A DNA stretch of 64,000 bases from the NCBI GenBank assembly GCA_000708835.1, contig DF237101.1, positions 1 to 64,000 on the forward strand. Direction: 5' to 3'. The notes under the pieces are model-generated. The model was given only the letters and a program-made list of their open reading frames with translations. It was not told where the DNA came from and made no database searches. The position numbers and the translations under genes are program-made. Numbering within the stretch: position 1 is the first letter of the stretch; the number at the start of each line of letters is the position of its first letter. Below, in pieces: positions 23,614 to 64,000 of this stretch. Source of the DNA: Klebsormidium nitens. Taxonomy: Eukaryota; Plantae; Klebsormidiophyceae.

Positions 23614-26600
23614 TTACCAAGCATCTATGGGCGGTAGCTCAAACACCGACCGGTACGCCAGGTGCCCCAACGGATTCTCTAATTCCCCCGCCCAATCAAA
23701 GAGGGCGGCCCAAATGGGGTCGGCTCCCAGCGTGGCTGAGTCACCGATAATGATCAATTTCCGACGCGCCCGGGTGATGGCCACGTTAAGGCGCCGTTGA
23801 TCCGCCAGAAACCCGACGGAGCCGGAGTCGTTGCTCCGGACACAGTCGAAAACGATGACGGCTTTTTCGCGGCCCTGGAGGTTAAGAAAGCTAGGATGTC
23901 ACGTCACCCCCTCCTACCTTTGTGTAGCATCTTGATTTGTGCACTCTTTGCGTTCGAGCGCTTCGGTCACGTCTGAAACCGTTACGAAGGAGGAGCAAAA
24001 TCAGACGAGATGTAAGGCCTGAATTGACACAAATTCTGGATTAGGAGTGTTCGATGGAGGAAGGAGGAAGCTACAAGAGCACGGCTTACGAAGCAAGACA
24101 CCAATCATCATTTTGGTATCTAAAGTGCTCAACTCTGAAGAAATCCTGCTGAAAGCAAAGCTGGCTCTTTCCATCTGACGCACAGGACGCCCAACAAAAG
24201 GTCTCCAAGATCCGAATGCAGTCGACTTCGAAGAACTCAACGGATCGACAATCTGGTCAATGGAGATCCGACGGAAGGTAACTGGCTTCACACGCCGCGG
24301 CCTCAAAGATCACTCAGCTTCTGCATTCAACGGTTGCCATTCGACATTCAAAAGGAACGCGACATACCCCCGTAGAACCGACACGCCGAACTTGACCCCG
24401 TTCCTCATAAGTATTGAAGCACTTCTCAAGAAGGGCAAACAACCGCTGCCTCCTAGGGTGCGCTTAACCGCGAGCAATCGGCGCAGTCCACGCCGTGTGC
24501 ACGAAGCTTCGGTCGGATTCGCAGCTAATGTTCGAGCGAAGACGAGCAAATGGGCAGCGGCATGTGCCTGCTGCGGAAGCTGCCACGTGGCGCACCTGGA
24601 AGCCGTCCACGGAGTCCACCTCCACGCCCGCGGCCACCTCGCCCGCCAAAAGCTCCCGCAGCAGCGCAACTTGGGCCGCGTACGGGGTCACCACGCCCAC
24701 GTCAGCAGCGCCCAGGGATCCCCCTGGTAAATAAGGTCAGAATTCAACCCTCCTGGTTTGAGAAGACGGTTTGCTCGAAGTTTCCGCAGCAGCGTAACTT
24801 GAGCCGAGTAAGGGGTCACCACGCCAACGTCAGCAGGGCCCAGGGATCCCCCTGGAAAATAAGGTCAAGCACTTAACCCTCCTGGTTTGAGAAGACCGTT
24901 TGAATGAAGGCCCCGCAGGAGCATAACCCGGGCCGCGGAAGGAATCACGATGCCCACGTCAGCAAGGCCTGGGATCCCCCTGATATGTAAAAACGAAGAA
25001 GTCAGATCTCTGAAGTTTGATAACATCTGATTTAAAGATCGTGGATACTCGAACACCCGTCCTGCCGCGTTATCAAAAATGTGTCCAAGGAAACACATAA
25101 ATACAGATCAAGGCCTCGATCATTCTGAACAAAGCATATCGCTGTAGCACAAGTTCGAATCCCTTCAAGCAGCGCGACTTGGGTCGTACGGGGGCCGGCG
25201 CTTCATGACGAGTATCCCATCTTCCCTGCTGCAAAGACTCCTCAACAACTTTCTCGAAGCATGACAAGAAGGAGGACGATCGGCGAGGAGCGAGAAGCCG
25301 CGGACATCCGAAAGTCATAAAGAGGGTAGGAAGCACTTGAGAGGAGATAGAAACAGGTTGGAACGAGTACCAGGCGAAATCATCAAATATGTGCGACCTC
25401 AATCGAAAAACATAAGCACGGCTTTTCTTTGAGCAGCCCACCAACGCGGCAGACCAACGTCCGCTTACCGATCCCGACCAGTTCTCGGACGACGCGGGCG
25501 GTCAGCTCCGCCTGCCCGGGGTTCGACGTCGAAAAGTCGGAAGCAGTGGCTTCCCCCCGGGCGCTCTCCTCTCCCTTCTCCTCGTCGAAGCCGGCCCCGG
25601 CTGTGTCGATGACTTCGAGCCAGCAGCCGTCCCGAAGGGTCGCCAAAACCTGCGGAAGTGGGGGTAAGGTGCCCGGTTTAGGAGAGCTCTGGTTGTTGCA
25701 GGTTTGATCTCTTCGGCCGGTTTGGAAGCTGGAATGGCTGACGCTGTTGCGCAGGCAGGGAAAGCTTCTTAGAAGAGGCTGAAAGCATTTTAGAAGCTTC
25801 GTGAATCTTGAATCTGTTGCCGAGGACGAGAAGCCATCCAGAAGAGCGATGGGAGTGTTCCCGCATAACAGGCACCGTTGATGAAGCCATTGCCGAACGG
25901 ATTTCCGTATATGCAATCGAAGAAAAGCTTGCAAAGACGCTTGCTTCCACACAACCCGCTCTATATAAATCCGAGACTCGTACCATTCATTGCTCACGCC
26001 GCCCGTTGACGGCAGCCCAGAGCAAGACCGATTTTGGATCACAGTGCTGACCTGGCGTGCCCCAAGCTGACGTCACCCACCTCGCTGCTTCCGTTAAGAG
26101 GTTCCGTTTCTTCCGTTGGCGCTCCGGCCCGCAGCCCGCCGCCGTAGAACGCCGCCGACGGGAAGGCCATCAAGGCGCTCGGCATGCGGTACTGCGTGCG
26201 GAGCGCGGCGGAGTAGCGGCCTGGACAATCTTCCCTGTGACGGGAGTCGCGATCGTGGGCAAAGGAAGCTAGAAAAGCTGAGGCGGAGGATACTCGTGAT
26301 GTTGGAGGGTGTGGAAAACATCTTGGGTGTGCGGTATGCGAGAACTTGGACATGCGGTACTGTGTGCAAAGAGCAGCGGAGTAGCGCCCTAAACAAAACC
26401 CCTGTGAGACGGGTACTGAGACTTTGGGCAGAGAATGCTGGAATCTCAGGCGGTGTCTACTTAGTATGTTGAAGAGGATCGGAAATTCTCTTAAAAGGCT
26501 GGGTATGCGGTAATGGATGCGAAGAGCAGCGCAGTAAGGCCCCAAACAGTACTCTCTAAGAAGTTGGGCAGACAACAAGTTCATAAGCAGGCAAAGGTAA

Positions 26601-38500: not shown

Positions 38501-41500
38501 AGTTTGCTGCTTGCTGTACTGGTGGGCAATGTTGCATTGCGATTTTCTGTGGAGTTTGCGGTGAGACACTGCTGCGAGTCGACGTAGGGACAAGACCTCC
38601 CTTCCGAAACGTACTCACTCGACGGATATGGAGCTGGCTGCCGAAGGGCCGATATTAGATCCAAACAAAAACTAAACAGAGTAACTTGAATAATTCCTCT
38701 TTTGGAAACCAAGGTCCGGAAATTGAAGCGGCTGGAAGCCTTTCGTCGGACAAGCCGGCTCAAGATCTTCGCCATACTAGATCCCTGGGCCAAGGCATTC
38801 AGTCGATCAACCGTCTCGAAAAGATCCCCCACGGTCAAACCGCAACCTGAACCTCAGAACCCGTCCTCTGATATCATCAGTCCTCCGACTGTGTACAGAG
38901 GCGGCAGTCCGAACGCCGCGCCTGCCGCGCCCGCCCCACCTGCCGCGCCCGTCGCGCCCGTCGTCGGTTCTCTGCAAAGCCACAACGAGCAACTCTATCG
39001 GGAGATCCTCAGCGAACAGCAGGAACTGCAGCAGATGAGCCTGGTATAGAACCCGAATCCCTCTGACCCAACTCCCTCTCTAACCCAACCCCCTTTCTAA
39101 CCTAGTTTCCTTTTTACCCAAGTCCCTTTCTGACCGGACTTCCTCATCAATCCATTTGGGCGCTCAAAGAAAGTAGGGAGTTGTGGGCTTAGGGATGGCA
39201 GACTTAGCAGGGTCCTCGCGTCTTAGCGCGTCAATCAGAAATCATGCTGGAGGCTGGCTACATTGATACATGCACGTGAACATGTGTCGAATAAGGTCGG
39301 CTTTCCCTCAAGAAGAAGACGCAAGGTACTGTGTTGACCTTTCGTAGACGAACCGGGAGCGAGCAGTTTCAGAGCAGCCCGCGTTCTCGTATCGGCTGGC
39401 TGCTGGTGCTATTCAATCGAACTTCTCATGCGTCTGCATCTTGCTTCTTATACTCACAAGGCTTGCTGTTGGGTGTTTGAGTTAACTGTCTACAATGTGA
39501 CTCTCCCTGAGCCCGGAAGAGATACGTTCCAACAGCCTGACAAAGTAGTTGGTTCGCTTCTTCCAGTCGGAGCGGCAAGTCGAAGACGACTTCAAGGCGC
39601 AGACGTTCCAGGAGTTGAACCGCATCAAGGAAGTGCTGGTGAGGGGCAGAATGGGAGGCTGACGAGGTTTCATGAGTTTGATAGGTTGCATTCTGAAGTC
39701 TGAGACGTGAGATGCTGACCGTGTTGCGTCTTGCAAAGCCTTGCTCTCTTTTTCGTACCGCTCCTCGGCATATTGATATGCTTGTGACCCAGCTCAGGGG
39801 CAGTATATGCGAACATATTTCTGACGCTTTGAAGATGAGGCGACACGGATACTGATCGATGAGGGACCTCGGGGTTGGAACGGCTGGAAGGTCTGAGAAA
39901 TTCACTTCAAAAGGTTTGCTTCAAGTTAAGCGAACGCTAAATTACCTTACCTTCCCGGGTATCGACGGTGCCATAGAATGTCGTCATTCTTGGCTACATT
40001 TTTGGACCGTACTCAAAGCGCGGATGCAAACATCCGCTTGGCCTATAGAGCAAGGTTAAATTGTTCAATTGAGCACAAGACGTGGCGAAACGTACTCTTC
40101 AGCTATCCGGTCATTGAGAAAGTCCTCGCTTTATTAAACGCCAAGTAATTGGTTTATCAAACGGCAAGTGATTGGTCTTCTCAAAGCCACCTGCTGCTCT
40201 GTGTATATGCCCTTGAAGATTGAACCGTATCGATCTCATCATTATCCTGCATAGCTCATAAATTGTGGCGTTAATGCAGGCGAGCCGGGAGTCGGAAGTC
40301 GCCAGCATGGGGGAGGCTCTCAAGGAGGCGCGGGTAAGCTCACCAGAAATCAGACATTGTCTCATTCGAATCTTGTTCAGCCTGACCAAAACTATGTCCG
40401 TTGGTTTGCTGAGCTACCTCCTCGGCAAATTCTCGTCTAGTGTCCTTCGACGAACAAGGTCAAAATTTGACACGTGTTCTTATAAGAAAAGTGTTCACAG
40501 TGTAGAAACGTACGCAGAGTCAAAACGCAAGCCATCAATGAGCTTGATCCGCGGCAGATGCTTGCTCGCTAAACGCCGCCTGTCTCGAGATCCTAAGGGT
40601 GCTACTAACTGGTTGTTGTTGTCGAAATTCGTCGATATCAAAGCGGCCGCTCTTTCCAATCTGCATACAGTTAGATAACAACTTTGGGCGAATGCTTGGT
40701 CCTGTTCATTCATGCGGCTTCTGGTACTACGTTATCTTGCCGTGCTTTCCATTTGGCAGCCCTCTACATATCCAGAAACAGTGGCCCCGGAGTCAAATGC
40801 TGTAAGGCAGCCTCACAATCTCCGTTCAAACCTGGCAAGAAACCCGATAATCATGTTCACTTCACTTGTACCACCACCCCAGTTTTGAACGCAGATTCGC
40901 CAACAGAGCCATCCATCCCCGCTGAAATCCTCCGTTTACGCAATATTTCAATAATATGTTGTATAATGATTATGATTTTGAGATAATGATTCTGATGATA
41001 TTTCGCAATAAGATCCTTCAACACTCTGGAGACCCTTCTTACAGGCCCAGTTGAATCTGCTGCGCGCCAAGTCTGCGGCCGAGCTCTCCCAGGCGCGCCA
41101 GGAGATGATCGAGCTGCAAACGCGGCTGCGCTCCACTGAGAAAGCGCTCGAGGGCCTCAAGCAGGTGAAGAACTCTTTGCTTTTGCGGTTTTAGTCTCCG
41201 GATATCGCGGGGCGAAGCTTGTGATTGTTGAAGAACGAAAGGGAAAACCTTTGAATGGCCTTAACGCGGCTGCGGTCCGCCGAGAAAGCGCTCGAGGGCC
41301 TCAGGCAGGTGAGAAACTTTGTGCTTTTGTGGTTTTGGTCTCCGGATCTCGCGGTTCGCAACCCTGTGATTGTTGAAAAAGAAAGGGGGAAACTTTAAGA
41401 CGCCTTTGATCCGTTGAAAAATGAAAGGGGGAAGCTTTAGCAGGCGTTGACACGGTTGCGGTCCGCTGAAAGCGCTCGAGGGTCTCAAACAGGTAAGTGC

Positions 41501-43049
41501 CTTTTACGTTTTCCCGCCCTTTCGAGGTTTTTGACCTCTGGGTTGTGCCGGTTGCGGCTTGAATCGTTGAGAATACAGAAGGGGAAAACTTCATGAGGTC
41601 CGTAGCGCGTCTGCCTTTCGCCAGATAAGCGTTAATGGTCCTTGTGAGGGCCGTGAAGGGTTTCCCCCTTGTAGCAACTTTTTAGTTCTCCGGTGTCTTT
41701 TTAAGGCGTCTGTTTGCCTGCCCGGACGGGTGGGTTACTTTGGGCGTAAAGGGCGGGTATGCGGTGCGGCGCGGGATTTCCAGAAAGTAAGGATTCTGAT
41801 GTTGGGTTACGAGCTTACTATTCCTAATGCTTTTCAAGCCAGAGTGAAGGTTCGTCACGAAAGGACCCAATTTCGCCACTCTTGATTCTTGACGCGCGGA
41901 CCGTTTGGTTGGATCTCCACGTCTAAAACTCTAAAATCGTAAACCCCTCAGATCCTAAACTCCTAAAATCCTGGATTCTTTACCGACACAGGTGCGAGTC
42001 GAGTACTGGGGCGTAGGGGACGTCGTCCAGCTGGCGGGCTCCTTCAACGGGTGGAACGAGCACTTTACACTGGAGCCGGACTTGAGCACCGAGATCCCTC
42101 CCCCAGGGGGCGGCCGCGGACCCATGGTCTTTGCGTGCGAGCTGCGGCTGTACCCGGGAGAATATGAGGTGGGGGGGAAAGATGTTTTCTTGAAGAACAT
42201 CAGGAAAGAGCGGTCCGCGCATTTTCTTTTTACCACCTTTGAGAAAAGTGTTATGGTTAGTTGAAGGCCTTGATGTTCTAGGGACTTAAGTACGGGGATC
42301 CCCAGGGGGGCGGCTGGGGACCCATGGTGATTGCGTGCGAGCTGCGGCCATACCCGGAAGCCCATGAGGTGGAAAATCCTGTTTTGGGGAGGAGTACATC
42401 CCTCTCTGCAGTATCCTTGCAAACCTGTGCGGGTCATCGTCAGGGGTTGAGAGAGCATCGGGCTGAATACACCTGGGGAAAACAGAGTACATTCTCCACA
42501 AAAGTCTGAGCTTCTTTGCACTTTTGACTGGGCGTCAGGGAGGGGCGGTGACGCCGTGTAGAACGTTGCCCTTTTGTCTAGGTCGGAAGATGGTTTCAGG
42601 GACGAAGAGCCGGTTAGGTCGCCGGAAGTTATCGAGAGAGCGTTCTGTTCTCAGCTCACGCTAGCTTACGCTACTCTACGAACCGGCATCCCTTACCAAT
42701 ACTGAAGTGGTGTCTGAGGGACACCTTCGCACCGCCGAGAGGTAGATCGTCGATTACTTGGCTTGGACCGTCTGATTCGTCTGGCTGTGAGAACGGCTCG
42801 AGATCGGGGCCATAATGGAGGATGCAGCTTGTCTGTGCGATCGGGTCAACTTGACATGCTGTGCGAACACGTGTTCAGACAAGCTTTGAAACATGGGAGA
42901 TTTTGTCTTTAACCGTTGGCCGTCCGTCTAACCGCTCGTCTTGTGTCTGCCAGGTCAAGTTCATTGTGGATGGCGTCTGGCAGATCGACTCACGACGAGA
43001 GATTGTCTTCAAAGGGATGAACCAGAACAACCTACTGAGAGTGGAGTAA
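35565..43049 (+). CDS. PTST2: PROTEIN TARGETING TO STARCH 2 / FLO6-like (coiled coil plus C-terminal CBM48); 5' exon(s) not resolved
   Basis: Exons 35565-35720, 36281-36795, 37247-37414, 38289-38403, 38899-39043, 39567-39638, 40280-40333, 41045-41164, 41992-42168, 42954-43049; phases close. Features: PTST2-type VPSPAQLSDRPDLAKGLRTRG, ERAARFLKTGKMD, a coiled coil, and CBM48 (VQLAGSFNGW, LYPGEYEVKFIVDGVW). Confidence 0.85.
39050..39145. repeat. Degenerate 17-18-bp minisatellite just downstream of a donor
   Basis: About 5 units of CYCTYTCTRACCCAACT. Confidence 0.6.
41165..41500 (+). repeat. Donor echo array of PTST2 coiled-coil exon (2 copies)
   Basis: ACGCGGCTGCGGTCCGCCGAGAAAGCGCTCGAGGGCCTCAGGCAG|GTGAG (about 41264) and ACACGGTTGCGGTCCGCTGAAAGCGCTCGAGGGTCTCAAACAG|GTAAG (about 41451), versus the real end at 41164. 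Confidence 0.92.
42169..42370 (+). repeat. Donor echo of PTST2 CBM48 exon (1 copy)
   Basis: CCCAGGGGGGCGGCTGGGGACCCATGGTGATTGCGTGCGAGCTGCGGCCATACCCGGAAGCCCATGAG|GTGG (about 42301-42368), versus the real exon end at 42168. Confidence 0.9.
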
Positions 43050-49597: not shown

Positions 49598-52500
49598 ATG
49601 GTGACCATTCGCCAGGCACTAGAGAGCGTCCTGGGTGCCACTTCGGCAGATGTGGGTTGCATCCTCTTGCACTTGGAAAAGGCAGGCTTCAGGAGCGATG
49701 AGGCTGCAGAGGGCGTTTTCAAGCATGTGAAAGCAGAAAACCTCCCACAACCTGCTGAAGCTGCGCCTCTTACTTTCAAGCAGAAACTGATTCTTGATGA
49801 GGCAGTCTCTTCTGCGACAGGTGGGTTTTCAGGATTAGGACGCGGCTCTTCAAAGTTTAGGATGTAGTTCCTTGGATGCTTGGGTGAGGATACGTGCACG
49901 CGCCACTTGGAACTTCAGGTAGCGCAAGCACACTTTAGCTGTCGGAGCAGCAGTCTTTCTCAAAAGTCAGATTTGTGCAATAGCATTGTGTGAATGACTG
50001 CTTTCTGCTTCATGGTGGACGCTGTGATTCACACCACCCCAGTCAGAGGTCTTTCATCCTTCAGAGAAACATCACTTGACAATCAAGGTGTGGAATAGCA
50101 TTCGTGCATGCTGCAATTGGCAGGGTGCCGGAGCTCTCTGGTTCATGGTAGACGCAGTGGTTCACACACCACCTCTCACACCACATCTCCAGGTGCCTGT
50201 TCAGAGTACTTCACTTTGCTTCCCGGGTTGTTTCACCTTCAGGCCGAATCGAGGTCACATGATTCCAGAGCTAGGTATTTGGTATGGAATTTGCTTGGCA
50301 GGAGCTTTTGTTACAGCAGCTGCTTGCTGCAAACCATCGCTTTTACAGGAATCACCTGCAGCTGCTGCGCTACACTCACAAACTTAAGCTATGTGACCAT
50401 CATACTATAGGGCATGTAACCTCTAGGAAGTCACCTGCTGAATCCTCTGGGGTTAAAAGCATCAAAGAATTTGGTTTATGGTAGACGCAGTGACTCACAC
50501 CCACCCCTCCATTGTGTTGGTTCCTGTTTGGAGCATGTCCTTCTGGTTCCCTGGTTTGGTTCGACCGTCAGGCTAGAATGACTTCACACGATCTTTGAGC
50601 TGGGTGTCTGTCATGTAACTTTCCTGGCCGCAGCCTTTTAAAACCAAGACTCATTCCCACGCCTAGGCCGTAAGTTGCTGTGCAATCAAAAGCAGCTGCA
50701 TGCTTTTCATGCAGAGTCCAGCAACAAACCACAAAGGAAGGTCAGTAGGACGGGTCTGCGCTCTAGACCCAGTGCAACCATGCCAGTCCAGGAGGTAGAC
50801 GAGAGGAAGTTGTGGGACCAGCACGTTGCAAGCAGACCAGTAAGTAGAGCTCCATGGCGCCCCTTCAGGAAGGAGCTGCAAGACGTGATGCTCTAATGTG
50901 CTCCTTTAGATCCTACAGATTGACAGTGCTTCATTCATTCTCGTCCTCTATGTAGCATGCACTGCTGCAGCAGCTTTTTGAGTTGTCTTTCACACTGCAG
51001 GTCAGAGCGCAGTGCCTTACATGGGATGCGGATGATCCTGCGACCACAAGCTGGCTGCCACTGGCTGACGACATTCTCGTGGAAGCCCGCTGGCTTCATC
51101 TGAGGCTCTTCGAGGGCCTGAATCGCGGCGACATTCAGGGGATCATCGAAGGAACTGGCTACGAACCAGTCTGGCATCCAGCCCTCCTCCGCTTTTTTCA
51201 GGTCAGCATCAGGCTTGCTTTCATGCATAAGCTGCGGTCTTCTCGGGTCGCGCAAAACCTGGAAATGCAAGCGAGATCCCGCTTGCTTCGTTCTTGCAAA
51301 ACCAGTCATCCCTTCCAACACGACACATGATTGGAGTTGGCATGCCTCTGAAATGATTTCATGCAAGCTCGTGGCAGAACTTGTTTTTCTAATGTCGCTT
51401 AGATGGACCTTGCTTTTGTCTAGATGGCCTGCAGGTCTATGCTGGCTTTCTTCCCAAGCGCGTACTCGAGGATAGACTACTTCAAAGCAAGAGACTGTCT
51501 GTCTTGGATCGTGATCAATTGCTCCTGGTTGTACTCAGGCCGCTGCAGGAGGGCAGCCTGGTGTCAAGTATGAGCGGGAGCTGGAGAGCCCCGGCGACTC
51601 CGCTCGAGAAGATATAAGGGGCTTGATAATGAGGCCAAGTGAAGGGCAGCCACCGCTAGCGCCTGGTGAATGTAAGACTGACTTCAAGCCGTCCACCTCT
51701 GATGCCATCTTCCACAACGGCCAACAGGATGGGATTGCTAAGGTAAGTCAGGCGACGAGACTGGTGACTGCTCTGCTTCTCACTGTCCCGTGCTCTTTGC
51801 TGCTCTGGACCGTGCTTGGGCGAAGGGCTTGAGGCAAGAATGGAGATTGGGCCTGCTCTTTTTGGGGAGGGAGGGCTGGGCAGGGAGCTCTCAACCTCCT
51901 TGCTTGACATCTCTGAAAAGCATGGCCCCAGCGCCAAAATCTGCATGTTGCAAGCGCGTGCACTCGCGATGCCTCACTTTGCGGACTAATAGTAAGTATG
52001 GAGTTGGCCTGGTTCCAGATTTCTGGCGTAGTATGTCAGCAGCTTGACAGGTTGGAAAATCTGTATCTGATATCTGGTATGTGTGAGTTTGTGGATCAGG
52101 AGTAATGAATTAACGGGGTGAACAAATAGCGGTCACTTTTCTGTTGTAGTAAGATGAAATCTCTCGCTTCGTTTCCTTTGAAGGGGTCGACCAGCTGTCC
52201 CTGTCCGTCTCGTTCCATTTAGATTGTCCAAGCATCAACGGAAGAGGTCATTCATGTTGATCCTGAGTGCTGCCAACTCCTCTATGCAGTTGTTCAAAGT
52301 GTGCTGGTCAAAGTACTGCGGGTACGGTCGCACGTTCATCTGCGCCTTCGCCGTGCTCTTCAAGGCCATCTGGATCGTCAGACTTCGCTTCGTGGGCACC
52401 CCGGACAAAGACCTGCCGACACCGTCCGCAGATTCGGATGAGTCTGTGCTGCTCGGATGTGACGTAGTCCCTCATTTCCCATCTTCCTTCGAAATTGACC

Positions 52501-53802
52501 AAAGCGACCCCTGCCTTCTCTGCCCCGACACACTCACTCTCCTCAAAACAGAGCCGTCCATCCACGACCTCTCAGAGCTTCTGCTAGAGAGTGGCTTTCG
52601 CAGGGGAAGCTTTCGTGCCACTCCTGGGTTTCACCTTCTCGTCCGGTCAGTTCTCGGGCAGTGCAAACTGTGGGGGCTGCAGGCGGTCGAAACGCTGGTG
52701 CTTAAGCTAGACACGGGAGCGAGCTGGGGGCTCAGGAAACCGGAGTGTGAGGTGGTGGCCATGGGGGCTCGGTCACTTGTCCTGCGGCGGCAAGCAGCGG
52801 ACAACTTTGTGATCAAGGTCGGAGCAAAGGAGACGATCGAGATGGAGGCCAAGATACACGACCGCGTGGACGGCAAGAGGTGCCCCCATATTCGGTCCTT
52901 GGAGCTAGATGAGCACGGGTGGGGTATGCGGGGCACAGTGCATGGAGCAGGTGAGCGCATCTGGGCTCTTCAGCAACCATATTTCCAAGCAGCTTGACAC
53001 CGAGTGCACTTGCAGCGAAGAACTTTCCTTATGTCTGGTTACTGAATGCCTTTGATTAGGCTTTCAGACCGCTCTGCAAATAAAGCTTGCATCTTTTTGC
53101 TGGGTCAGACTCCTAAACCTCCTGACTCAATGCAGGCGATGGTCTCGCTTTCATGTGCTTGGCGGAATTCTGCACCGGAAGCCTGGAACCACACCACGTT
53201 GCAAGTCCTGTGCGCTTCCAAGAGTTCTTCACCCAGGTTTGTGTCCAAATCCAGGGCTTAAGAAGCTCATTTAACAGTGTCAGGCTAATCCTCGAAATTA
53301 TCACGTCTGCAGCAGCGAATACGGTCAAGCATAACAATCTGAATCTTGTGCATGTTGAAGCGTGTATGCCCCCTATTCCGAATTTCCCGTGAAACCTGAA
53401 TCTGCATTGCTGCTCACACAGGCCCAACAGGCGCTGCACGTCCTTCATGAGAACGGCATTCTACATCGAGATCTGAAGGCGGACAACATGCTCCTGACGT
53501 CCAATGGGAAGCTCTTACTGAATGATTTCGACGTTTCCACGTTCAAGGACGATAAGAGGGGCCTGAAGGCCTTAGTTGGCAATGACTATTGTCGATCGCC
53601 TTTTTTTGAGCAGAACCACGTTTCAAACAAAACAGATTACACAATCCGGGATGATAGGATGGGGCTTGTTTTGGCTTTCCTGCAGCTGCGGGGGAGAACC
53701 GGGAGTAGTTTCAAAGACAAGTATGCGCTTCTAACGGCGGCTAAACGGGACAAAGACTGCCCGCCAGAAATGCAGCAATGGATCAAGGATGCAGGCTTGT
53801 AA
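49598..53802 (+). CDS. Protein kinase-like protein with helical N-terminal header and putative PD-(D/E)xK nuclease; Crinkler-like architecture (7 exons, about 631 aa)
   Basis: Exons 49598-49820, 50715-50839, 51001-51201, 51539-51742, 52290-52950, 53136-53236, 53422-53802; phases close. Kinase motifs MGARSLV...VIK, IEMEAK, LHRDLKADNMLL and NDFDVS (DFD instead of DFG). The central EDIRGL...PGECK resembles a restriction-endonuclease-like motif; that part is inference. Confidence 0.78.
50005..50640. repeat. Degenerate intronic tandem duplication (3 anchor copies)
   Basis: TTCATGGTGGACGCTGTGATTCACACC (about 50008), TTCATGGTAGACGCAGTGGTTCACACACC (about 50142) and TTTATGGTAGACGCAGTGACTCACACCC (about 50475). 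The sequence following the last two is also similar. Confidence 0.75.
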
Positions 53803-56158
53803 CTACTTCGATGAGGATGACTTTGGGTAACTTTGCATGAATTCACAGCAAAGGCCCGGTGAGTCATCAGTCTTTCGCAGGGAGGATATTAGAATATCCT
53901 TCAATCATACAGGAATAGAGGATCTAGAGGACGAGGATAATACGCTTTCAAGACATTCTGTCGGATGATTCTGGAGATTTCAAGGCAGAAAATTTTGTCA
54001 CTTTGTCACTTTGCATGAAATCTGCCAATTCAGTTGTAGACAATGTAGAATTGTACGTGGATCGTACATGACCAATCTGCATATGCTTGAAAGCCTATAG
54101 CATGACACCATTCATTAGTGCCTTCATAATTTCATGCAAGGGCGCTGCTGATCGCGTACAGAATACTTGTACGTGGCCATTGGGCAGATTAGCATACATG
54201 AATGATGGCGCGCGACTAACTATTCGCAACCGAGGCCAATAAATATTCTAACGTACTCTTGACCACGGGAATTTATGGTGCGACTTGCGGAGCTCGGTTC
54301 GACCGTACAGTTGCGCATAATATCAGCAAACCAAGTGAAGTTCGGACTAAAGTTCTGGCCAATCAGGGTGGGGCTTCTCAGCCCCCCCTCTAGCCCAAGG
54401 GGCTGCAATCAAGCGGACCGGTCGAAGGGCCTCTCCCCAGGGGCATAAGGCGGTCGACGCCAACCGGGGGGCGGCCGTTACCGCGCTCGCTCCAATCCGA
54501 TCAGCACGGTAATGATTTCGCCCTGAGAGCACACTAGCTAGTTACTGTCCGAGTGTCCAAGCTTCAGGCACAGCGGTCAGTCACACTAGGACTCGGACGT
54601 CAGCAGCGCCGTATACTACAATATTGCCAGCATTTTACATGGTATGGCCGGTATACCTCGAGCCTTCCAGAAGGCATGCGAAGGTCTGCCAGCTGTCCAG
54701 AAATCCAGCACATCCAGCGGAATATAACAGTCAGCAGCCTGGAATATCCGGACCGGACTTGCTGGGACCCAAGTCATACCGAGGTAGAGTCAGGACTCCT
54801 GCATGCTGCTCAGCAGACGCCAATGCGGAATGTACACAGGCTGAGCCTCGGGCGCCCCTCTCCTTGCTGCTTGTGGTCAGATGTTCAGGTGTGCTTGTAG
54901 CGCCATGGAGCTGATGCGCTGCTGCTGCCTGTTGTACAGCTGACATTGGGGCTAGTTTGCGCTTACTTAGTATAGGGAATGACTCGGTTCAGCCTGGTGG
55001 CGCAACTTGGTAGGAACTCGGACCAGAGCAGGGCAGGCTTTTGCCCTCAAGTTTCGAAGTGATCAAGACTATTGGGCAACAAGAGACCGTGTTTGGCTGC
55101 TCAGTGCAACGAAGAAGAGTGCATCAGGTACGCATCTGAAAAGACAATGAATCTGATGAAGCTCTAATATATGTTTCACCATCCAGTGAACGTATTCTTC
55201 TGATGCTGCTTCTGATCGTGAGGTCGACGAAGAGCTGCAAGTGAGAAGAGGTTCGACAGAGCTGCTATTGGCATGCATATAATACGAGGTTGCGCCTCTT
55301 CAACCTGGTGCAAGTGAGCCAAGACCAGGGGGTTGTACTATGGGATTCGTTAGAGTTCTCAGCAACCTGGCCGGGTCGATCGTGTTAAAAAAAGAGGCTA
55401 ACCTGTGACAGAAAGCAGAGGGGGGTCAGCTGCTCAACACATAAAAAAAAGCAGCTGCTGATTGGTTCTTTCCACAGAATCGTTCAAAAACTTATCAGCA
55501 ATCAGGTTTTAAAGAGTGGCTGTATGTCACGATTCTTCTCGGCCCAAGGCCAACTCGCCATCTGGACCCGAACTGCTTCATTCAGGCCGGTCTAGATCAG
55601 TTTCTCGAAGGTGAGCCAACCTCCCGCAATGGTGAGGAATGTCAGCCCTGCCTTGATGCGATGGGTAGCAGAAGCGACGGAATCTTTAGGCTTCTGCTAT
55701 CCTTCGCATCAGGGCCAGATTGTAATTTCAAAAATGCAGAAACAGGGGCGAAAAACCATTTGTTTCTATGGTAAGCTGCCGCGGGGGCCCCTCCGGGAGG
55801 CTGCTGCCTCGAGGCCTCCCTTCTCTCTACTTCAACTCTGTCTTTTGCTACATCAATGAGCGCTGTACACATGAAGATGCGCTTCATTAAGGTTAATTAC
55901 CTATCTACCCGAGTCAGCTGATGGCTGCTGACGCCTGTGCACAACGGTGCTTGTTTGCAGGCGTCAGTGATTGATGCACACTGTGAGTGTCTGCCAGCAA
56001 CGCCCGCAGTATCACAAGCAAACTGCAATGAAAAGCATTTTAAACTTACGGACCCAAGGGCGGCCATAGGCGTCAGTGTGTTTTGGGCTGCCCTCATGAT
56101 CTGGAAGTATCAGCGCAATACGAAAGGGGTCTCTCTCACAGTATTGTATCTTTTGCAG

Positions 56159-59100
56159 GCCATGGTGGGTGGGGATGGTCCAGCATCAGTTGGGGCTCCA
56201 GCTGACCCTCCCCTCTCAACTGGCCCGCCCCTTACAGCCAACCCGCACCTTGCGCCGATCAGCAACGGCGAGTCAAGCACACTGGCAGGTTCGAGAAGCG
56301 CGCAGTCGCTCGATGGCGCACAGGAAGGCTTCGCAGAAAAGGTACATGCCTCGAGCAGACCACAAATAATCAGCGTGGCATGCTCACAGAGTGCCTTGCC
56401 ATCGGCTTTGTTGGGTGAATCCGTGAGCAATTGGGCAAGGTGCGCATAGGGTTCAGACTCCTTTCAGCAGAAACAAGAAAGCGCCTTACTTGAGCGCCTC
56501 CTGGTCCTGCGTCGCTGTGCCTGATTCTCATAAGCTGTGCCCGCACTGAGGTGTGCCAGCACCGCTCACAGGCAAACGAGGTGTATCAGCCAACGAGCCC
56601 TAGATACTACAGCATGCGCACACCAGAGGAGATCAAGGCCACGCGAGCGGCGAGCGAGAAGCGGCGCCGCACCGGGGAACCCTTTCTGGAGGGCTTTTTC
56701 GAAGCTGGGCACCCAAGGGCACCCAAGAACGAGGTAGGAGTCAATGCTTGGAAAACAATCCTCTTGCACAGAAAGTGTGCCTTCTGAATAGTCGAGCCGA
56801 TCTTATGTGAAAAATGCTACACGCTGCACTTGTCAGTGCAGACGGCTGTCCAAGGTGTCCAAGCTCTTTTGGAAACTCTTCTGGTGTTCAATCCTGATGA
56901 CGCCAGCACCCGGCCATCCCACCCAGAATGCTTGCTGTAGTTGATCGCACAGACACCTGTCCAAGTGTCCGAGCTTTTNNNNNNNNNNNNNNNNNNNNNN
57001 NNNNNNNNNNNNNNNNNNNNNNNNNNNNNNNNNNNNNNNNNNNNNNNNNNNNNNNNNNNNNNNNNNNNAATTGATGGCGCAGACTCTGTCCGAGTGTCCG
57101 AGCTTTTGCGATGACTTTTCAGAGAGGTCGGTCCTGGTGACGTCAGCACTTATCAAAAACACCTAGAATGATTGCTATAGTTGACGGCACAAATCCTCCT
57201 TTAGGTTTAAACCAAAGTTGTATTGTCGTACAGGATGGCCGCCCGACCGAACCAGGCGGAAGCGCCCGTGCACTTCATCCAGAGGCGCCCTCTAGAAGCA
57301 CCCTTGTTGCGCGTACCAACCGCGCTGGCTCAACGGGTGTGGACAACCAGGCGCCTGCTTCCATCCCTGTTCTGCATGGCCTCTTTGACCCCAGCTACTT
57401 CCACGATTTTCAACGCAGGCTGAGAGAGGAAGTGGCAGCTTCGCAGGAGCTCGAAGCAGCCACCACCGACTCACAGGTTAGTGTTAAGATTGTTTAAACT
57501 TTATCGAACCCAACCACTGATTCTTGAGGCGCGCCTCAAGAATCATGCCGGTGTACCGGGGACAACTAGTGCTCTTGTGTTAACAGCTCGGCTTGTCATG
57601 ATAGATGCTGACGTCACGAATGAGGCCCGAGCCCAGAAGGTAGGTCACAAACTCGGACACTCGGACAGGGGTGCTCACCGGCCCACCGGCCAGTATTGAG
57701 GGCTGTTCTTGTGACCTTTCGCCTGGACTTTCGCCTATACGGCGGACTTCTGATACCTTCCGCTTTACGTGCAGGACAACGGCGACCCAGAGGGCAGGCC
57801 CCCGGGCCTTATAACGAAGATGACGAGCACCCCCTCCGGCCAGGGGGGCGCTGGCGCTCCTGGTGAATCCATGGACGTTGACAGTCGGCCACAGCCGTCC
57901 AGCGCCCATTGCAGCCAGGTGCGTCTCAAGTGCGAGTGCATGCGAACGCTGAAGAGAACCAAGCAAGCAGACCCATTCGCACACGCCCCCAGTTCCTTGC
58001 TTTTTGGGCAGTGCCGTAGACCGTCGCTTGGTTGTTGAAGAACCTCCCCGGCTGCCCAGAGATTTGTCCAAAGGTCCAAGATTCGGTCCGGCTGTCCTGA
58101 TCTCATCCCGGCTGAGGCTGCCCAACCTTCTTTGAGTTTTCAGAAACATGCCCAGGTCCCTGTCTGGCTGCCATAAACCCTCGCGTGTCTGCAAGTGTCT
58201 GACTCTCTCGAGTTCCGTCCGGATGCCGCCCAACAAATCTCTCCGGCTGTTCGAGATCATTCTCTGCTGACCGGAAAATTCGCCAGTCAATCTGCCGTTC
58301 CAAGAAACGAATGGTCATGTTACAGTCCCTTGCTAATCTCAAGTTTGAGTCTGATCTTTCTTCGCTTGAGGCTTCCGAATGAAACCAGCGTTCTACATCC
58401 GTCAAAGTACTGGAAGTTTCTGGTATCGGCTCGAGAGCTGTCTAGGATTCATCTGGTGCATACTCACGGTGTTCTTGAAACACCCTACGTATGCACCACA
58501 TAACTTGAGGAATCGAAGACCGTTCAGCTCTGCCGACGTCATTCCGGAGCTTCGCTCTCAGAAGGTGTGACAAGAACTCGGACACTTGGACGAATGTTGC
58601 CCCTGTTAACTTCAAAGTTTCTACCTTAGGATGTCTGCTGACGTCACTTAACAGGCCCGAGCTAAAAAGGCATGCTACAAAGTCGGACACTCAGACAGGC
58701 ATTGCTCCCATCACCATCAATCACAGAAGGATTCCACTCGGGTTGTCTGCTGACGTCACTTAACAGGCCTGAGCCCAAAAGGTTGGTCACAAACTCGGAC
58801 ACTCAGACAGGGGTGTTGGCATTGTCTCAACCCATCGCGCTGGCCATCTTGAGGTGATGGTTGCTGACGTCACGAAGCAGGCTCGAGCTCAAAAAGCATG
58901 TCACAAACTCGGACACTCGGACAGCGGTCTCTCAACAGCTGCAACGCTAGTCTTAGCCTCACATTGATTCATTAATTCTTCTTATGTCAAGCGGCACGCA
59001 TGGTTGTGCAGGCAAGCAGTGGCAGCAACCAGCAGCCGCCGCGCGCCTTCAGTGGAGAGGAGTCGCAGAAAACGGAGTCAGAAGGGGAGGGCGAGGACGT

Positions 59101-62100
59101 TGAGGGGGCGGGGTTTGAGAGCGTGCACGAATCCTCAGACGAAGAGACGTCCCAGGATCGTGCAATGATCGACGACGCGCCTCAGGAAGAGGAGAACGAA
59201 GTGGTGCAGTACGGCCGGATGATTGCGGCGATGGAGACAGATTCGGACGCAGAGGGCTTCTCCCAGGTGCTGGCGAAGCTCAAGCGCCGCGCGCCGAATG
59301 TGGAGACCAACCCGGCCCCAAGCAACCGCCGGCGCCGCGTGCTGCTCTCACCCTCCGACTCCTCGAGCGAGGATGAGGGCAGCTCGTCCCCTGTTCGCAG
59401 CCAGGCCCCGAGCGCCAAGCACCCCCCCTTGCCGGAGGAAGGGGAAGCGCTTGGGGCGGACTGCCCGATGCCGGACGACCCCTTGTGGGAGCCCGAGGAT
59501 GACGCCTGGTTGTACGACCTTTCGCCAGAGGACCTTGCCTGGTCGGACTATGTCGCGGACTTCGTCGACCTGAGCTTGGAGGACGACTTCGCCCAAGCGT
59601 GCGAGATCGTTCCACATTCGCGCGGAGGCAGCAGCCAGGTGAGCACCCTCCACCCCTCCCACGCGCTTCTTTTTGGGATAGGAAATTGGGGTTCAGCTTG
59701 TGTCGGCACTCAGCTGATTGCATCAAGGCCTTATTGCGTGCCCGGAAGAAGTGAGCGTGCAATTGCAACCAATAGTGCAGAAGACATAGGAATCTTTTGA
59801 GGAATTCCTGTACATCGCCGTTCAAATCCCCGACTTTGACAGGTAATGTTCGTGTACATTGCCGTTCATTTAATGTACATAGCCATTCCACCCCCAAGTT
59901 GAGAGCTCTTGTACACGAAAACCCAAGCGCATCCTATGCTTTGAAGCGACCAGATTATCGGACAGCTCTGGGCGGAGATTGCTCAAACAAACTTCCCCTT
60001 TTTGCTCAGCGGCCGGTGCACATAACTTCCCCTTTGAGGAATGCCCGCTGATGTACTCGAATCTCTGAAGCACATCTGAAGACTAGGAGGCATTCAGCGA
60101 ATTAGTGAAGACTTCATCTGATTGTGTACAGAATATTGGCATGGAACTTTTGGCCCCCCTTTTGTTGTTTGCAGTGCTTCTAGGGTGCCGAAAAGAGTGG
60201 TCTAAGTCTCTATTCCGCACTTCCTCGCAGGCCACAGCTGCCAAGGGTGCTCCGATCGCCCTCGATGCAGCCGAGCCATCCTCGCTGAGCAATTGGCTCA
60301 CTTCGCCCTCCGTCCCCGTCCCCGTCCCGAGCGCCGCGGCTGCCCAGAGCGCCATCGGGGCGGCCCAACAGGAGCAGACCCTACCTGCTGCGGCCCAGAG
60401 CTCAGGGGGCGCAACCAACGCCACCCAACCGCCCCCTGCTCCCCGCCTCGTACCCGAAGGCGTTGCAGTGCAGGAAACGATGCCCTTCCCCCAGGTAGGG
60501 TTCGTGCAAATTGTGATCACCCCCTTTCTTCGCTTGGTAAGCGGTCGGCTCAAAATGAAAGTCGCGTTGCTTGTTGACGTCATCACGGCATTTTGAGGTT
60601 GATGCCGCGTGCCTCACACATCGTAACCGATGGTGACTTTCTGCATCGCTTTGAAGCAACGGCCATGTGATGCTCTCTCACGATATTGGCTCATTCGATG
60701 GGTGCTCACTTCTCGCAGGTACCCAGCCTAGCTGACGTGGGGGGGGCGTCACGAGTCGACCCCATCGTGGCCGCCGCTCATCACTTGCACACGCATGGTG
60801 TGGCGGCGCTGACGTTCAACATGAAAGTCTCGCTGAACGACAAGGGAGAGGAGAAGAAAGCGCCGGCTGGCCTCATGCCAGAGTGGCAGAAGAAGTGCGA
60901 TCTCGGCAACTGTTTGCGCCAAGGAGTCCGGCCTGGCAGAGCCTGCCTTGCGATCGTGACCGAACCCTCGGACCTCATCGTCCTCGACGTCGATACGAAG
61001 GACGAAGGGGTGGAGACCTTCGAGGAAGTGCTAGCAGAACACGGCCCCTTGCCTGACGATACCCCTTGGGAGTGGTCCGGAACGAGGCCTGGGATGCACT
61101 TCTTCTTCTCCCTCTCGCAGTCCAAGGCCGCCGGGTTGCTGAGCGGCGCCAACAGGACTAAGCTGACGTACAAGGGCCAAAAAGTGGGGCTTGACACGCG
61201 CGGCGAGGGGGGGATGGTCTTCGTGGGCCCCAGCAGCTACAAGAGCCTGGATGGCACAGTGCGCTCGTATGAGTGGGTGCAGGAGATCGCCCAAGACCGC
61301 TCCAACCTCCGAGCTATGCCCGGGTGGTTGATCGGAATCCTCAACGACAGCAGCGCGCCCTCAGCAGCACCAGGGTTCATGCTCACTCCCAACACTGATC
61401 CTTTTCCGCCCAAAATGCATCGCCCAAAGCTCGCTCTGCTTCTTCACCCCACCGACCTTAATTGCCATTCGTCATTTTGTGATTTCCGAGAGCTTGTTCG
61501 TGGGTTGACAACACGAAGTTTGTTCGTGCATCCGTTTTTGCCGTTTACTTCCTTTCAATTGAGTTGACATCTCCAACATGAGCCTTTGTAGGTGATGAGG
61601 TGACCCTGTCCGAGTGTCTGAGTTTTCGTCACACCTTCCAAGAGCGGAAGTTCTGATGACGTCAGCAGCCATCCCCGATAGGATCCTCCGTAGTTGATGG
61701 AGCGGACTCTGTGCGAGTGTCTGAGTTTTGGCACACCTTCCGACAGCAAAGCTTCTGGACGACGTCAGCATTCTGCGCTTCAGCGGAATGCCGCTATGAT
61801 GGTGTGCAGACAGTGAACACCCGCCATTATGCCTTCCTTCAACAGTGGCTTCTCTATTACCGAAGGCCCAAAGCGTCGCACCCTAACGTCCATTGCAATC
61901 CTTTTTTGCAGGGCAGCGCCATTGGCCCCCGCTCGCTTCGCTGAGGGCCTCAATGCCGACGGAGTCGAGTTGCCCCCTCCGCCGGCGGTCCTGGAGCGCA
62001 TCAAGAAATGCCTTGCAGACGTAGGAGACACCTCTTCGCGCTTCGACAAGCTCAAGAGGTTCCCTGGGGGGCCGGACCTGTACGCCTATCGCGTTAGCGG

Positions 62101-64000
62101 CGCACGCGTGTGTCCGTATGGTGTGAGCCACAGCGGCTCGAACAACTTTTGTGTCCTGGTACGTGGTCGCGGTCTTTTCTACAAGTGCAACAGCTCCGAG
62201 TGCTGCGACGTTCATCCGCAGCGCAAGATCGGGGAGCTCACGGCACAGGAGAGCATGGTGTGGGGGGCGAGACGGCCTCGGTTGCTGAGGACGACCTGAC
62301 CGTGTACGACATGCTGACGAAGGCCTTTGTGGATTACTGGGCGTTTAAAGGAGACATGGGCGGCAGTCGGATTGTTGCGCAGATGTACTCCAGATGCCAC
62401 AGGTGAAGCTACCTTTCGTCGTTTCTCATTCAAGCTCCGCAATCTTGGGTGATTGTTTGAAGAGTTTCCAGGCTCTTTCAATACGTGACCTCAAATCCAA
62501 GATTGGTCGGGCTGTACTCCTCTCTTGTGAGCGAACTTCGACTTCTTGAGAGCCCTACCGAAATTGCAACTCGAATGGTGGCCGCTGATGCTGTGTCCGA
62601 ATGTCCAAGTTTTTGGAGTCAGCAACCTGAGATGACGTCAGCAGTCCCCCCTCGCTCCCTCGGCTCCAGTTGACAGCTTGCGTCGTGTCCGTGTGTCCTT
62701 TTGAGCCCGCAATCCCTTTGACGGCGGCAGCGATTGCGCCATAATCTCTTGCGGAACCAATCGTCTGCTTTGCATCTTGTGTCGGAGTGTCCCCATTTTG
62801 TGCACATCTCTTTCTTAGCAGCTCGGTGTGACAACCGCAGTCACCTCAACCGATGAGCCTTGCTTCGTTTGCACGTAGATCAATGGGCATCATGGCCCAG
62901 TTTTCCCACGATGGAGCTTGACTTTTCGAAGCGGCCAGAGAAGCGACACCTTTCCTCTTCCTTTTAACTGCAGGATCTGGTATGATTCGGAGGGCAAGAC
63001 TTGGTGGATATGGGATGGGAAGCGCTTCAAGCAGGCTGCAATCGAGACGGTCAAATATATCTGCATTCATCAGCTGAGCACCGTTTACGGTCGACTTCGA
63101 GCAGAATTGAAGGAGCAGATAGATGAGACCGTCGACGAGAATGAAAAAAAGTTGCTGAGCAAGCGTCTCGACAAAGTGAGACGCTACTACGACGCTGGTG
63201 AGATTGGCTCGACCTTGACGATCATGGCAGGGGAGATGGCCCTGGATTTGGTTGGGGAGCTGGACGCCAATCCGGACATCCTGAACGTTCAGAACGGGGT
63301 CATCAACCTGCGCACTGGCCAGCTCGACATTCACAGGCCGGAGTACTTGTGCACCAAGCTAGCTGACGTCAACTTCAAGGTGCGCTTCAAGGTTTTGGAT
63401 TGTGATGTCGTATTTGTGCAGCTGTAGAGACACATACCGCCAGAGTGTTGGTTGAATGAAGAGAAGAGGTCACCTCAGAGCTTCTTTGTGCTGATATCAA
63501 CCTCCATGAAACCCCTCGAAATCACATTTACAGATTGAGGGGTTTCTTGTATGAAACCTTGTGGCCTTTGTGAGATGTTGAAGTCTTGAGGCTGCCACCT
63601 CAGGAATTACTTGCACGTCCTAGCTTTGATCATGTCCAAGCAAGCCGAGATGCCATGCAAAGTAGTGTGCAGCAAGGACTTGATGCTTTCTGCGTTGTGG
63701 CCTTGCAAGTAAGCAGATCGTAAGAAGCTCCGGACGACCCGTTCCTTGCAGGGGCTCAGTCATCCGACCCCCACCATCCGCAATTTCCTGGACGACATCT
63801 TCAACGGCGACCAAGCACTCATTGAGTTCATGCGGAGGCTATGGGGGTACGCCATAAACGGGCGGATTAGCGAGGAGATCATTGTGTTCTTACTCGGGAG
63901 CGGCGGTAGGTCGCTCACACCAAAACCGCTCTGATTGCTCTTGTTTGGGCGTCTCTTGGGATCCCCGTTTTCGAAAGCAACCCAATGAGAGAGCAGTCTT
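56159..64000 (+). CDS. Spliced Prim-Pol/AEP + Zn-finger + D5_N + SF3 (P4/D5-like) primase-helicase with long low-complexity N-terminus; one frameshift; incomplete at the window end and 5' end uncertain
   Basis: Exons 56159-56341, 56572-56733, 57234-57476, 57775-57918, 59012-59638, 60231-60494, 60719-61374, 61912-62402, 62974-63379, 63752-63905. Motifs IVLDVD, GMHFFF, LDTRGEGGMVFVGPS (AEP); CPYGVSH...KCNSSEC (Zn finger); WWIWDGKRFK and LDANPDILNVQNGVINLRTG (D5_N); RLWGYAING...VFLLGSGG (start of Walker A). The core domains are well supported; joining the six N-terminal exons is less certain. Confidence 0.8.
56847..57148 (-). repeat. Bipartite intronic element, 3 reverse copies (one cut by a gap)
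   Basis: 56847-56908, 56958-gap and 57087-57148: TGTCCGAGTGTCCGAG ... TGACGTCAGCA. Confidence 0.9.
56979..57068. other. Assembly gap (90 N) inside the repeat cluster
   Basis: Run of N. Confidence 1.
57606..57667 (+). repeat. Bipartite intronic element, forward copy
   Basis: TGCTGACGTCACGAATGAGGCCCGAGCCCAGAAGGTAGGTCACAAACTCGGACACTCGGACA. Confidence 0.95.
58531..58923 (+). repeat. Bipartite intronic element, 4 forward copies (105-114 bp period)
   Basis: Starts at 58531, 58636, 58748 and 58862; each spans 62 bp from box A to the end of box B. Confidence 0.95.
61607..61770 (-). repeat. Bipartite intronic element, 2 reverse copies
   Basis: 61607-61667 and 61710-61770 (61 bp each). Confidence 0.92.
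62594..62643 (-). repeat. Bipartite intronic element, shortened reverse copy
   Basis: TGTCCGAATGTCCAAG...GATGACGTCAGCA, 50 bp. Confidence 0.8.

Follow-up and report, generated by a model that had tools for sequence, protein, structure and literature searches.

Among the closest described counterparts of the locus analyzed here are the replication origins of Staphylococcus aureus pathogenicity islands (SaPIs), whose Rep and PriRep proteins carry a primase and a superfamily 3 (SF3) helicase in one chain. Excerpts of two papers describe the SaPI Reps (PMC9371898) and the alpha protein of P4 (PMC4234260) as binding short iterons, in P4 the origin repeats, by a C-terminal winged helix. For PriRep5, which is PDB 7OLA in an excerpt of PMC9371898, part of a preprint (bioRxiv 10.64898/2026.10.17.759575) reports that the winged helix reads 6-7-nt iterons placed 2 nt apart. 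SaPI origins measure ~300 bp, lie directly downstream of rep and have opposed iterons around an AT-rich core. Here we describe a repeat in Klebsormidium nitens, found in 64,000 nt of contig DF237101.1 (GenBank assembly GCA_000708835.1, positions 1 to 64,000, forward strand; hereafter the window). It consists of two short boxes, A and B, held at a fixed distance in introns of, and upstream of, a spliced gene whose sequence is that of a primase-helicase of viral type. The repeat is a real, constrained, family-linked cis-module. We tentatively propose, with a probability of roughly 0.4, that box B is an iteron for a predicted winged helix of the gene family's own protein and box A a host basic leucine zipper (bZIP) site.

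As in SaPI origins, short direct repeats are set 2-3 nt apart beside A-tracts, in both orientations and at the gene of the replication-type protein. Unlike those origins, the modules occupy spliceosomal introns and upstream DNA across 8 kb, include a bZIP-like palindrome and have no AT-rich core. Because this core is missing, the arrays are not members of the SaPI origin class; by analogy, they may work like the binding sites of such an origin. Likeness to P4 alpha and pRN1 ORF904 lies in the protein: full-length paralogues match the P4-family primase model TIGR01613 (137 bits, above the cut-off) and combine Prim-Pol with SF3 helicase as pRN1 does. However, P4 alpha has a Toprim primase, pRN1 has a stem-loop origin whereas the element here lacks a stable fold, and both systems are prokaryotic and intron-free, unlike the Klebsormidium gene. 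The third group is formed by D5-type proteins of eukaryotic DNA viruses, with their endogenous copies, such as C962R of African swine fever virus (ASFV), poxvirus D5 and the primase-S3H proteins of virophages and Polinton-like viruses (fusions described for the latter in part of PMC4642659). ASFV C962R is the best solved-structure profile match (E 1e-39 with a wider family profile), followed by poxvirus D5 and SaPI5 PriRep5. Unlike these viral types, the Klebsormidium family is multi-copy and intron-rich and has a disordered, acidic N-terminal extension.

Two-box copies in the window

Each unit consists of box A, a spacer, box B and a linker, and head-to-tail arrays account for most copies. 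Box A combines TGC with the palindrome TGACGTCA, which we take to be a bZIP C-box or cAMP response element (CRE), TGCTGAC presumably being a Maf-type half-site; box B is an 8-bp direct repeat behind an A-tract. At least 12 copies are present, 11 intronic and one upstream of the gene (Table 1), and they occupy five of the nine coding-region introns visible in the window (introns 2, 3, 4, 7 and 8).

Copies were scored jointly for both boxes with a matrix of known copies, and the best score in each of ten simulated 64-kb sequences served as null (maxima 16.2-20.2). An earlier reading of these letters, made without database searches (the sequence-only reading), had located ten intact copies with the right coordinates and strands; nine span 61-62 bp and the tenth 50 bp. 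Nine of the ten scored 40.8-49.3; copy 56847, whose box B holds a 1-nt insertion, scored 20.9 in the ungapped scan. That copies occur in both orientations was also borne out, as was the interruption of an eleventh, whose box B (56958-56973) is followed by a run of N (56979-57068). The observation was confirmed in part only: the repeat had been placed only inside introns and said to have no complete copy in the first 56 kb, but the intact upstream copy (54546-54605, minus strand) scores 42.3 with a matrix built without it. Its restriction to this one gene did not hold either, as genomic contigs carry further copies with new spacers. The upstream copy precedes the cover by RNA-type contigs of run X4, which begins within or beyond the bin holding this copy, and has CCAAT words nearby; the RNA label of this run and of run X10 is a guess backed solely by GT..AG joints. 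In the first 54 kb of the window no complete copy was found; the top score there, 21.3, belongs to a match spanning 76 bp and is close to the null maximum. Two decayed copies extend the intron-8 array, one scoring within the null range (62686-62729, 19.9) and one just over it (62780-62839, 22.9).

Table 1. Positions of two-box copies and of parts of the primase-helicase gene in the window
Feature	Position	Strand	Details
Twelfth intact two-box copy	54546..54605	-	upstream of gene; 60 bp, spacer 33 nt
Intron 2 array	56847..57148	-	56847-56908, 56958-(gap 56979-57068), 57087-57148; period 111
Single two-box copy, intron 3	57606..57667	+	
Intron 4 array of four copies	58531..58923	+	58531-58592, 58636-58697, 58748-58809, 58862-58923; periods 105, 112, 114
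Intron 7 array of two copies	61607..61770	-	61607-61667, 61710-61770; period 103
Intron 8 short copy	62594..62643	-	50 bp, spacer 23 nt
Two decayed copies extending intron-8 array	62686..62839	-	~93-bp period; weak
Spliced primase-helicase gene	56161..63907	+	KFL_001520080 + KFL_001520090; extends past window end
Introns of primase-helicase gene	56342-56571, 56734-57233, 57477-57774, 57919-59011, 59639-60230, 60495-60718, 61375-61911, 62403-62973, 63380-63751	+	
Exon with Prim-Pol domain	60719..61374	+	PF09250, E 9e-18
Exon with Cys/His zinc-finger-like domain	61912..62402	+	2-nt frameshift versus paralogues near 62259-62266
Exon with D5_N	62974..63379	+	PF08706, E 1e-17

Several features were seen near the copies. 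Contig depth is raised at 54200-54621, upstream of the gene, a region that seems common to another locus, and the single-copy contigs of two DNA runs both start at 54592, within the twelfth copy, which could be an element end or a shared promoter. Intron 3 holds a perfect 28-bp palindrome (57518-57545), 60 bp ahead of its two-box copy, and a hairpin with 26-nt arms and a 14-nt loop lies in the 5' region of the gene (55650-55715).

Constraint on the boxes and their spacing

Mean pairwise identity is 94% in box A and 87% in box B. Spacers form three subfamilies plus the upstream copy and are 72% identical within subfamilies. Between subfamilies, identity is 89% in the boxes and 42% in the spacers, compared with 35% after shuffling (35 pairs, not independent). 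The boxes are therefore kept while the spacer diverges, as had been noted, but the spacer is homologous among copies and not free, as had been claimed. Its length is 33-35 nt in 10 of the 11 complete window copies, whereas the five window linkers measure 42-52 nt. Fixed spacing thus holds, without free variation of spacer length in the data examined. Rather than standing alone as a ~62-bp sequence, the element belongs, in most copies, to head-to-tail units with periods of 103, 105, 111, 112 and 114 bp and weakly homologous linkers; Tandem Repeats Finder (TRF) does not call these arrays, the units being too diverged. Unit lengths fall into two groups, 103-105 and 111-114 bp, which differ by roughly one turn of the helix, among copies that are few and related.

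The boxes also differ in their CpG sites. Box A retained its CpG in all 11 copies, whereas transitions (TTGG or TCAG) are present in 10 of the 24 box-B half-sites with the GACA core spared (Fisher p 0.015, related copies being treated as independent). These 24 octamer half-sites belong to 12 modules on the plus and minus strands. Gene-body methylation has been reported in K. nitens (part of PMC11244446).

These values bear on the possibility that the repeat is a neutral minisatellite and its box conservation an artefact of having been found by the boxes. Common tandem arrays in the window and the two decayed copies are what such a satellite would leave. It would not be expected to leave neighbouring segments within units at 89% and 42% identity, to keep every box-A CpG, or to fix the spacer length while the linker length varies. 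In addition, spacer-only and linker-only profiles recover the known units, and these box-free profiles gave no clear box-less units. A neutral satellite origin is unlikely, and the minisatellite explanation, to which we give very little weight, is largely disfavoured: the two boxes are under position-specific constraint at a fixed distance.

Two further candidates were rejected. A structured non-coding RNA was sought with Rfam, which gave 0 matches for the element, and by folding ten copies on both strands, which gave no stable fold (z-scores -1.5 to +2.4). Box A as a branch point or micro-exon (TGCTGAC, later AAG|GT) is discounted by its presence on both strands, the missing pyrimidine tract and its lack of use by the joints listed.

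Copies at other loci

Other loci were examined through Logan contigs rather than a genome assembly. These contigs hold further two-box copies with new spacers. Readable spacers of outside copies (at least five copies) were 34, 35, 35, 35 and 35 nt, as computed from the letters between joints, so the fixed spacing extends to all five; two linkers of 41 nt were present among those listed, and two outside contigs contain tandem units of 104 bp. In one contig, a diverged Prim-Pol exon is joined to box A of the intron that follows it (intron 7 in the window), in the same orientation (joint 61255->61651, assigned to its contig record by depth). A 641-nt contig with 13 differences (~98% identical) spans the whole intron-4 array into exon 5. 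Its differences, those of a second intron-4 array, recur in DNA runs alongside the window version. Taken together, these contigs point to two or more paralogues with the two-box motif. Co-occurrence with paralogues, which the sequence-only reading had proposed as a check, was thus seen in the paralogous Prim-Pol joint and in the ~98% identical array, but not, among the rows listed, in the intron 7 of one paralogue (see below).

Relative to baseline, summed contig depth was 2.4-8.1x in element bins and 3.3-7.4x in conserved exon bins (181 contigs were placed on 9.8 kb in run X1). The abundance of the element is about that of the family exons, which argues against thousands of close copies, and no very abundant miniature inverted-repeat transposable element (MITE) was seen in the data examined.

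This result touches on a different explanation, in which the repeat is a non-autonomous mobile unit or dispersed satellite of ~105-114 bp that hops locally, occurs also in unrelated genes and has boxes bound by the transposase of another element. Like MITEs and intronic minisatellites, the repeat is short, dispersed, present in both orientations and built of tandem units of ~105-114 bp, and members of one spacer subfamily lie in separate introns on opposing strands (58531, plus; 61607/61710, minus). Some copies elsewhere have unreadable neighbours, and one outside copy lies within a well-covered RNA-type contig. On the other hand, no terminal inverted repeats were found around single copies or arrays among the pairs listed, abundance is modest and of the order of the family exons, only the two boxes are conserved, and the first 54 kb lacks a complete copy. 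Moreover, the two outside copies whose neighbour could be read both lie next to exons of paralogues. We therefore regard a mobile unit as unlikely.

Searches in wider collections were largely negative. A full-element pattern had 0 matches in a viral contig collection, four single matches in metagenome contigs and one in genome contigs; these five, which hold the boxes only and no primase-helicase by tblastn, are read as chance. The four-copy array had no blastn match in phages.

The primase-helicase gene and its family

The Prim-Pol exon is identical to part of K. nitens KFL_001520080, and the helicase part continues in the NCBI model KFL_001520090, where Walker A/B motifs are present. GT..AG exon joints were found for introns 1-6, 8 and 9 in RNA-type contigs of two runs (among the joints listed, 15 of 69). 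For intron 7 the support comes from the NCBI gene model and one paralogue joint; its donor (GTTCAT) is weak, and RNA-type contigs matching the window exactly read through it. Its retention, truncating the protein after the Prim-Pol domain, is possible. NCBI splits the gene model at the frameshift near 62259-62266. After depth subtraction, window-type RNA-labelled contigs also carry this frameshift, so it is probably real; judged by its sequence, the window copy of the gene has probably lost the ability to make the fused enzyme.

Relatives of this protein are encoded at 13 or more K. nitens loci, many of them annotated as fragments. The family architecture is Prim-Pol, zinc finger, D5_N and SF3 helicase, and paralogues carry Walker A/B, Prim-Pol and Cys/His motifs; copies span ~98% DNA identity down to ~41% protein identity. 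In paralogue KFL_006270020 (P0004), residues ~1033-1073, between zinc finger and D5_N, are also found in another frame, which would be a second frameshift or a gene-model error. Trees were built by a quick method and by FastTree, eight short rows being left out of one tree. The Klebsormidium clade has Shimodaira-Hasegawa-like support of 100 (FastTree), and the nearest rows outside it are intronless Prim-Pol/Cys-His/D5_N/SF3 proteins of ~800 residues (P0065 and P0066) on 5-24-kb contigs. Exon-sized fragments from Joint Genome Institute (JGI) records pair with several K. nitens loci, which suggests that old family lineages have been kept in related algae.

PriRep5 (7OLA) is a sequence relative of the family (E 2.4e-9), and a fold search returned giant-virus, phage and virophage D5 proteins alike at 13-18% identity. 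By these comparisons the gene is a primase-helicase of viral type, with matches spread over several donor groups. Scans for loci of the family protein found none in the viral contig collection and none in the genome contig collection. The AlphaFold model of one family protein (P0003) has a disordered N-terminal third and a C-terminal strand-helix-helix-strand-strand domain (predicted local distance difference test, pLDDT, ~85-95), likely a winged helix as read from secondary structure. An earlier poor model (pLDDT 41) gave uninformative fold matches for the C-terminal part (Z 3.7-4.4). The main text of the K. nitens genome paper does not mention a primase. Part of another paper (PMC5294986) lists K. 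flaccidum/nitens with core genes of nucleocytoplasmic large DNA viruses (NCLDVs), including D5. No published description of the two-box element or of this primase-helicase family was found in the open-licence literature.

Proposed function and competing explanations

In the mechanism we favor, box B would be an iteron bound by the predicted C-terminal winged helix of the family's own protein, and box A would be bound by a host bZIP at a fixed distance. The module would have been multiplied by tandem duplication, with spacer and linker drifting and both boxes, as well as the distance from A to B, held by selection. The protein would come from intact paralogues and be loaded at two-box sites with help of the host factor, where it could regulate the gene and/or start local DNA synthesis.

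Host factors might also act alone. The repeat would then be a composite enhancer or promoter module with a bZIP on box A and another host factor on box B, multiplied by tandem duplication and driving a domesticated or decaying viral family whose own protein does not bind it. The 8-mer GCTGACGT of box A is a frequent word (rank 41 of 48,487 in the first 54 kb), found also in the tandem array 24650-24985, and box A, with its retained CpG, has the form of a C-box/CRE. Occurrence in both orientations at fixed spacing suits such an enhancer, as does the one copy near CCAAT words upstream of the RNA cover. In addition, the gene is spliced, and fragments from other samples group with deep lineages of paralogues, as in a family retained for a long time. 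However, the first 54 kb has the box-B word only once, box B is not known to match a plant factor motif, and box A, unlike a C-box, here always has box B as its partner at 33-35 nt. Eleven intronic copies exceed the need of one enhancer, and this type of gene is known for binding short direct repeats. No K. nitens bZIP binding data were found among the papers listed by a literature search. On balance we consider host factors acting alone somewhat unlikely; were they the only binders, the repeat would be an unusually clear composite enhancer amplified within a horizontally acquired gene.

Phage sequences offer a possible parallel to box B. The sole viral match to an 18-mer of box B is a phage fragment (L005). 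Where a Cch-HTH-like open reading frame (ORF) of this fragment ends, at 1826-2107, AT-rich tracts are surrounded by 12 TGTCCGAG-type octamers on both strands, against a chance mean of 1.5; this is likely an iteron origin, judged by its arrangement. Another is likely formed by TGTCC/GGACA repeats that immediately follow a phage Prim-Pol + DUF3987 gene (L078, ~3890-4240). As an analogy these arrays are a lead only.

A number of observations weigh against the favored mechanism. No Pox_D5 or helix-turn-helix (HTH) Pfam match was found in 47 homologues, and the winged helix is a secondary-structure reading. Only 2 of the 85 viral loci with a doubled octamer looked like iteron arrays (all 85 counted, five inspected), primases or helicases made up 3 of 67 scanned neighbouring ORFs, with no control pattern, and no homology was detected between the L005 ORF and the Klebsormidium family. 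The AT-richest 40-mers of the arrays (0.55-0.70) compare with a background median of 0.65 and 90th percentile of 0.725. Box conservation is inflated, as copies were found via the boxes, and contig depth is not copy number. The paralogue joint 61255->61651 has 26 letters on its short side, and another paralogue contig spans intron 7 (joint 61351->61909) with no element piece among the rows listed. No capsid gene, packaging ATPase, integrase, transposase or element end was seen upstream among the selected window ORFs scanned, one flank being in the window. Finally, the window has other tandem arrays of 110-200 bp, and tandem duplication is common in K. nitens; the tandem arrangement, unlike the boxes, therefore needs no special mechanism.

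The sequence-only reading had interpreted the repeat as a binding site for two proteins or a dimer, possibly an origin, a recombinase site or an autoregulatory array. This interpretation is partly supported, in that position-specific constraint, fixed distance and the link to paralogues stood. A compact iteron origin of SaPI/P4 type did not, as there is no AT-rich tract above background and opposed arrays lie apart with exons between them. The idea of recombination sites, in which a tyrosine recombinase of the element would use the palindrome as core and the direct repeats as arm-type sites, fared no better. Palindrome and direct repeats at a fixed distance resemble a lambda-type att site, and some Polinton-like viruses encode tyrosine recombinases (part of PMC4642659). 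Nevertheless, no recombinase was seen in the window, deletions and inversions would be invited by having twelve sites in both orientations within one gene, and the palindrome has no asymmetric crossover spacer, making this highly improbable.

Replication genes of viruses that are left behind in algal genomes are generally regarded as domesticated or in decay. At least 13 loci ranging from ~98% DNA to ~41% protein identity, splicing and a constrained cis-module of its own suggest that this family may still copy itself. If the proposed iteron binding is extended, Klebsormidium might harbor a capsid-less self-replicating element, a eukaryotic counterpart of SaPI and P4 replicons, with an origin split into bZIP-plus-iteron modules in its own spliceosomal introns and replication licensed by a host factor. 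We regard this as decidedly doubtful; if true, one spliced gene would encode primase, helicase and origin-binding domain of a self-replicating element.

Other features of the window

The upstream neighbour of the primase-helicase gene is a protein kinase gene (52182-53802; Pfam Pkinase E 8e-12, last exon). A 128-bp tandem array of 2.6 units (24650-24985) has a box-A-like GCTGACGT in each unit and lacks box B. Two- to four-copy repeats of 130-330 bp lie at 3400-4290, 12280-12660, 42070-42380 and 50139-50638, and tandem arrays of 110-170 bp at 4290-5100, 41110-41500 and 26180-26560. The arrays at 4290-5100 and 41110-41500 resemble repeated exon ends with 5' splice donors inside introns, and the sequence of these arrays suggests frequent local duplication in the K. 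nitens genome.

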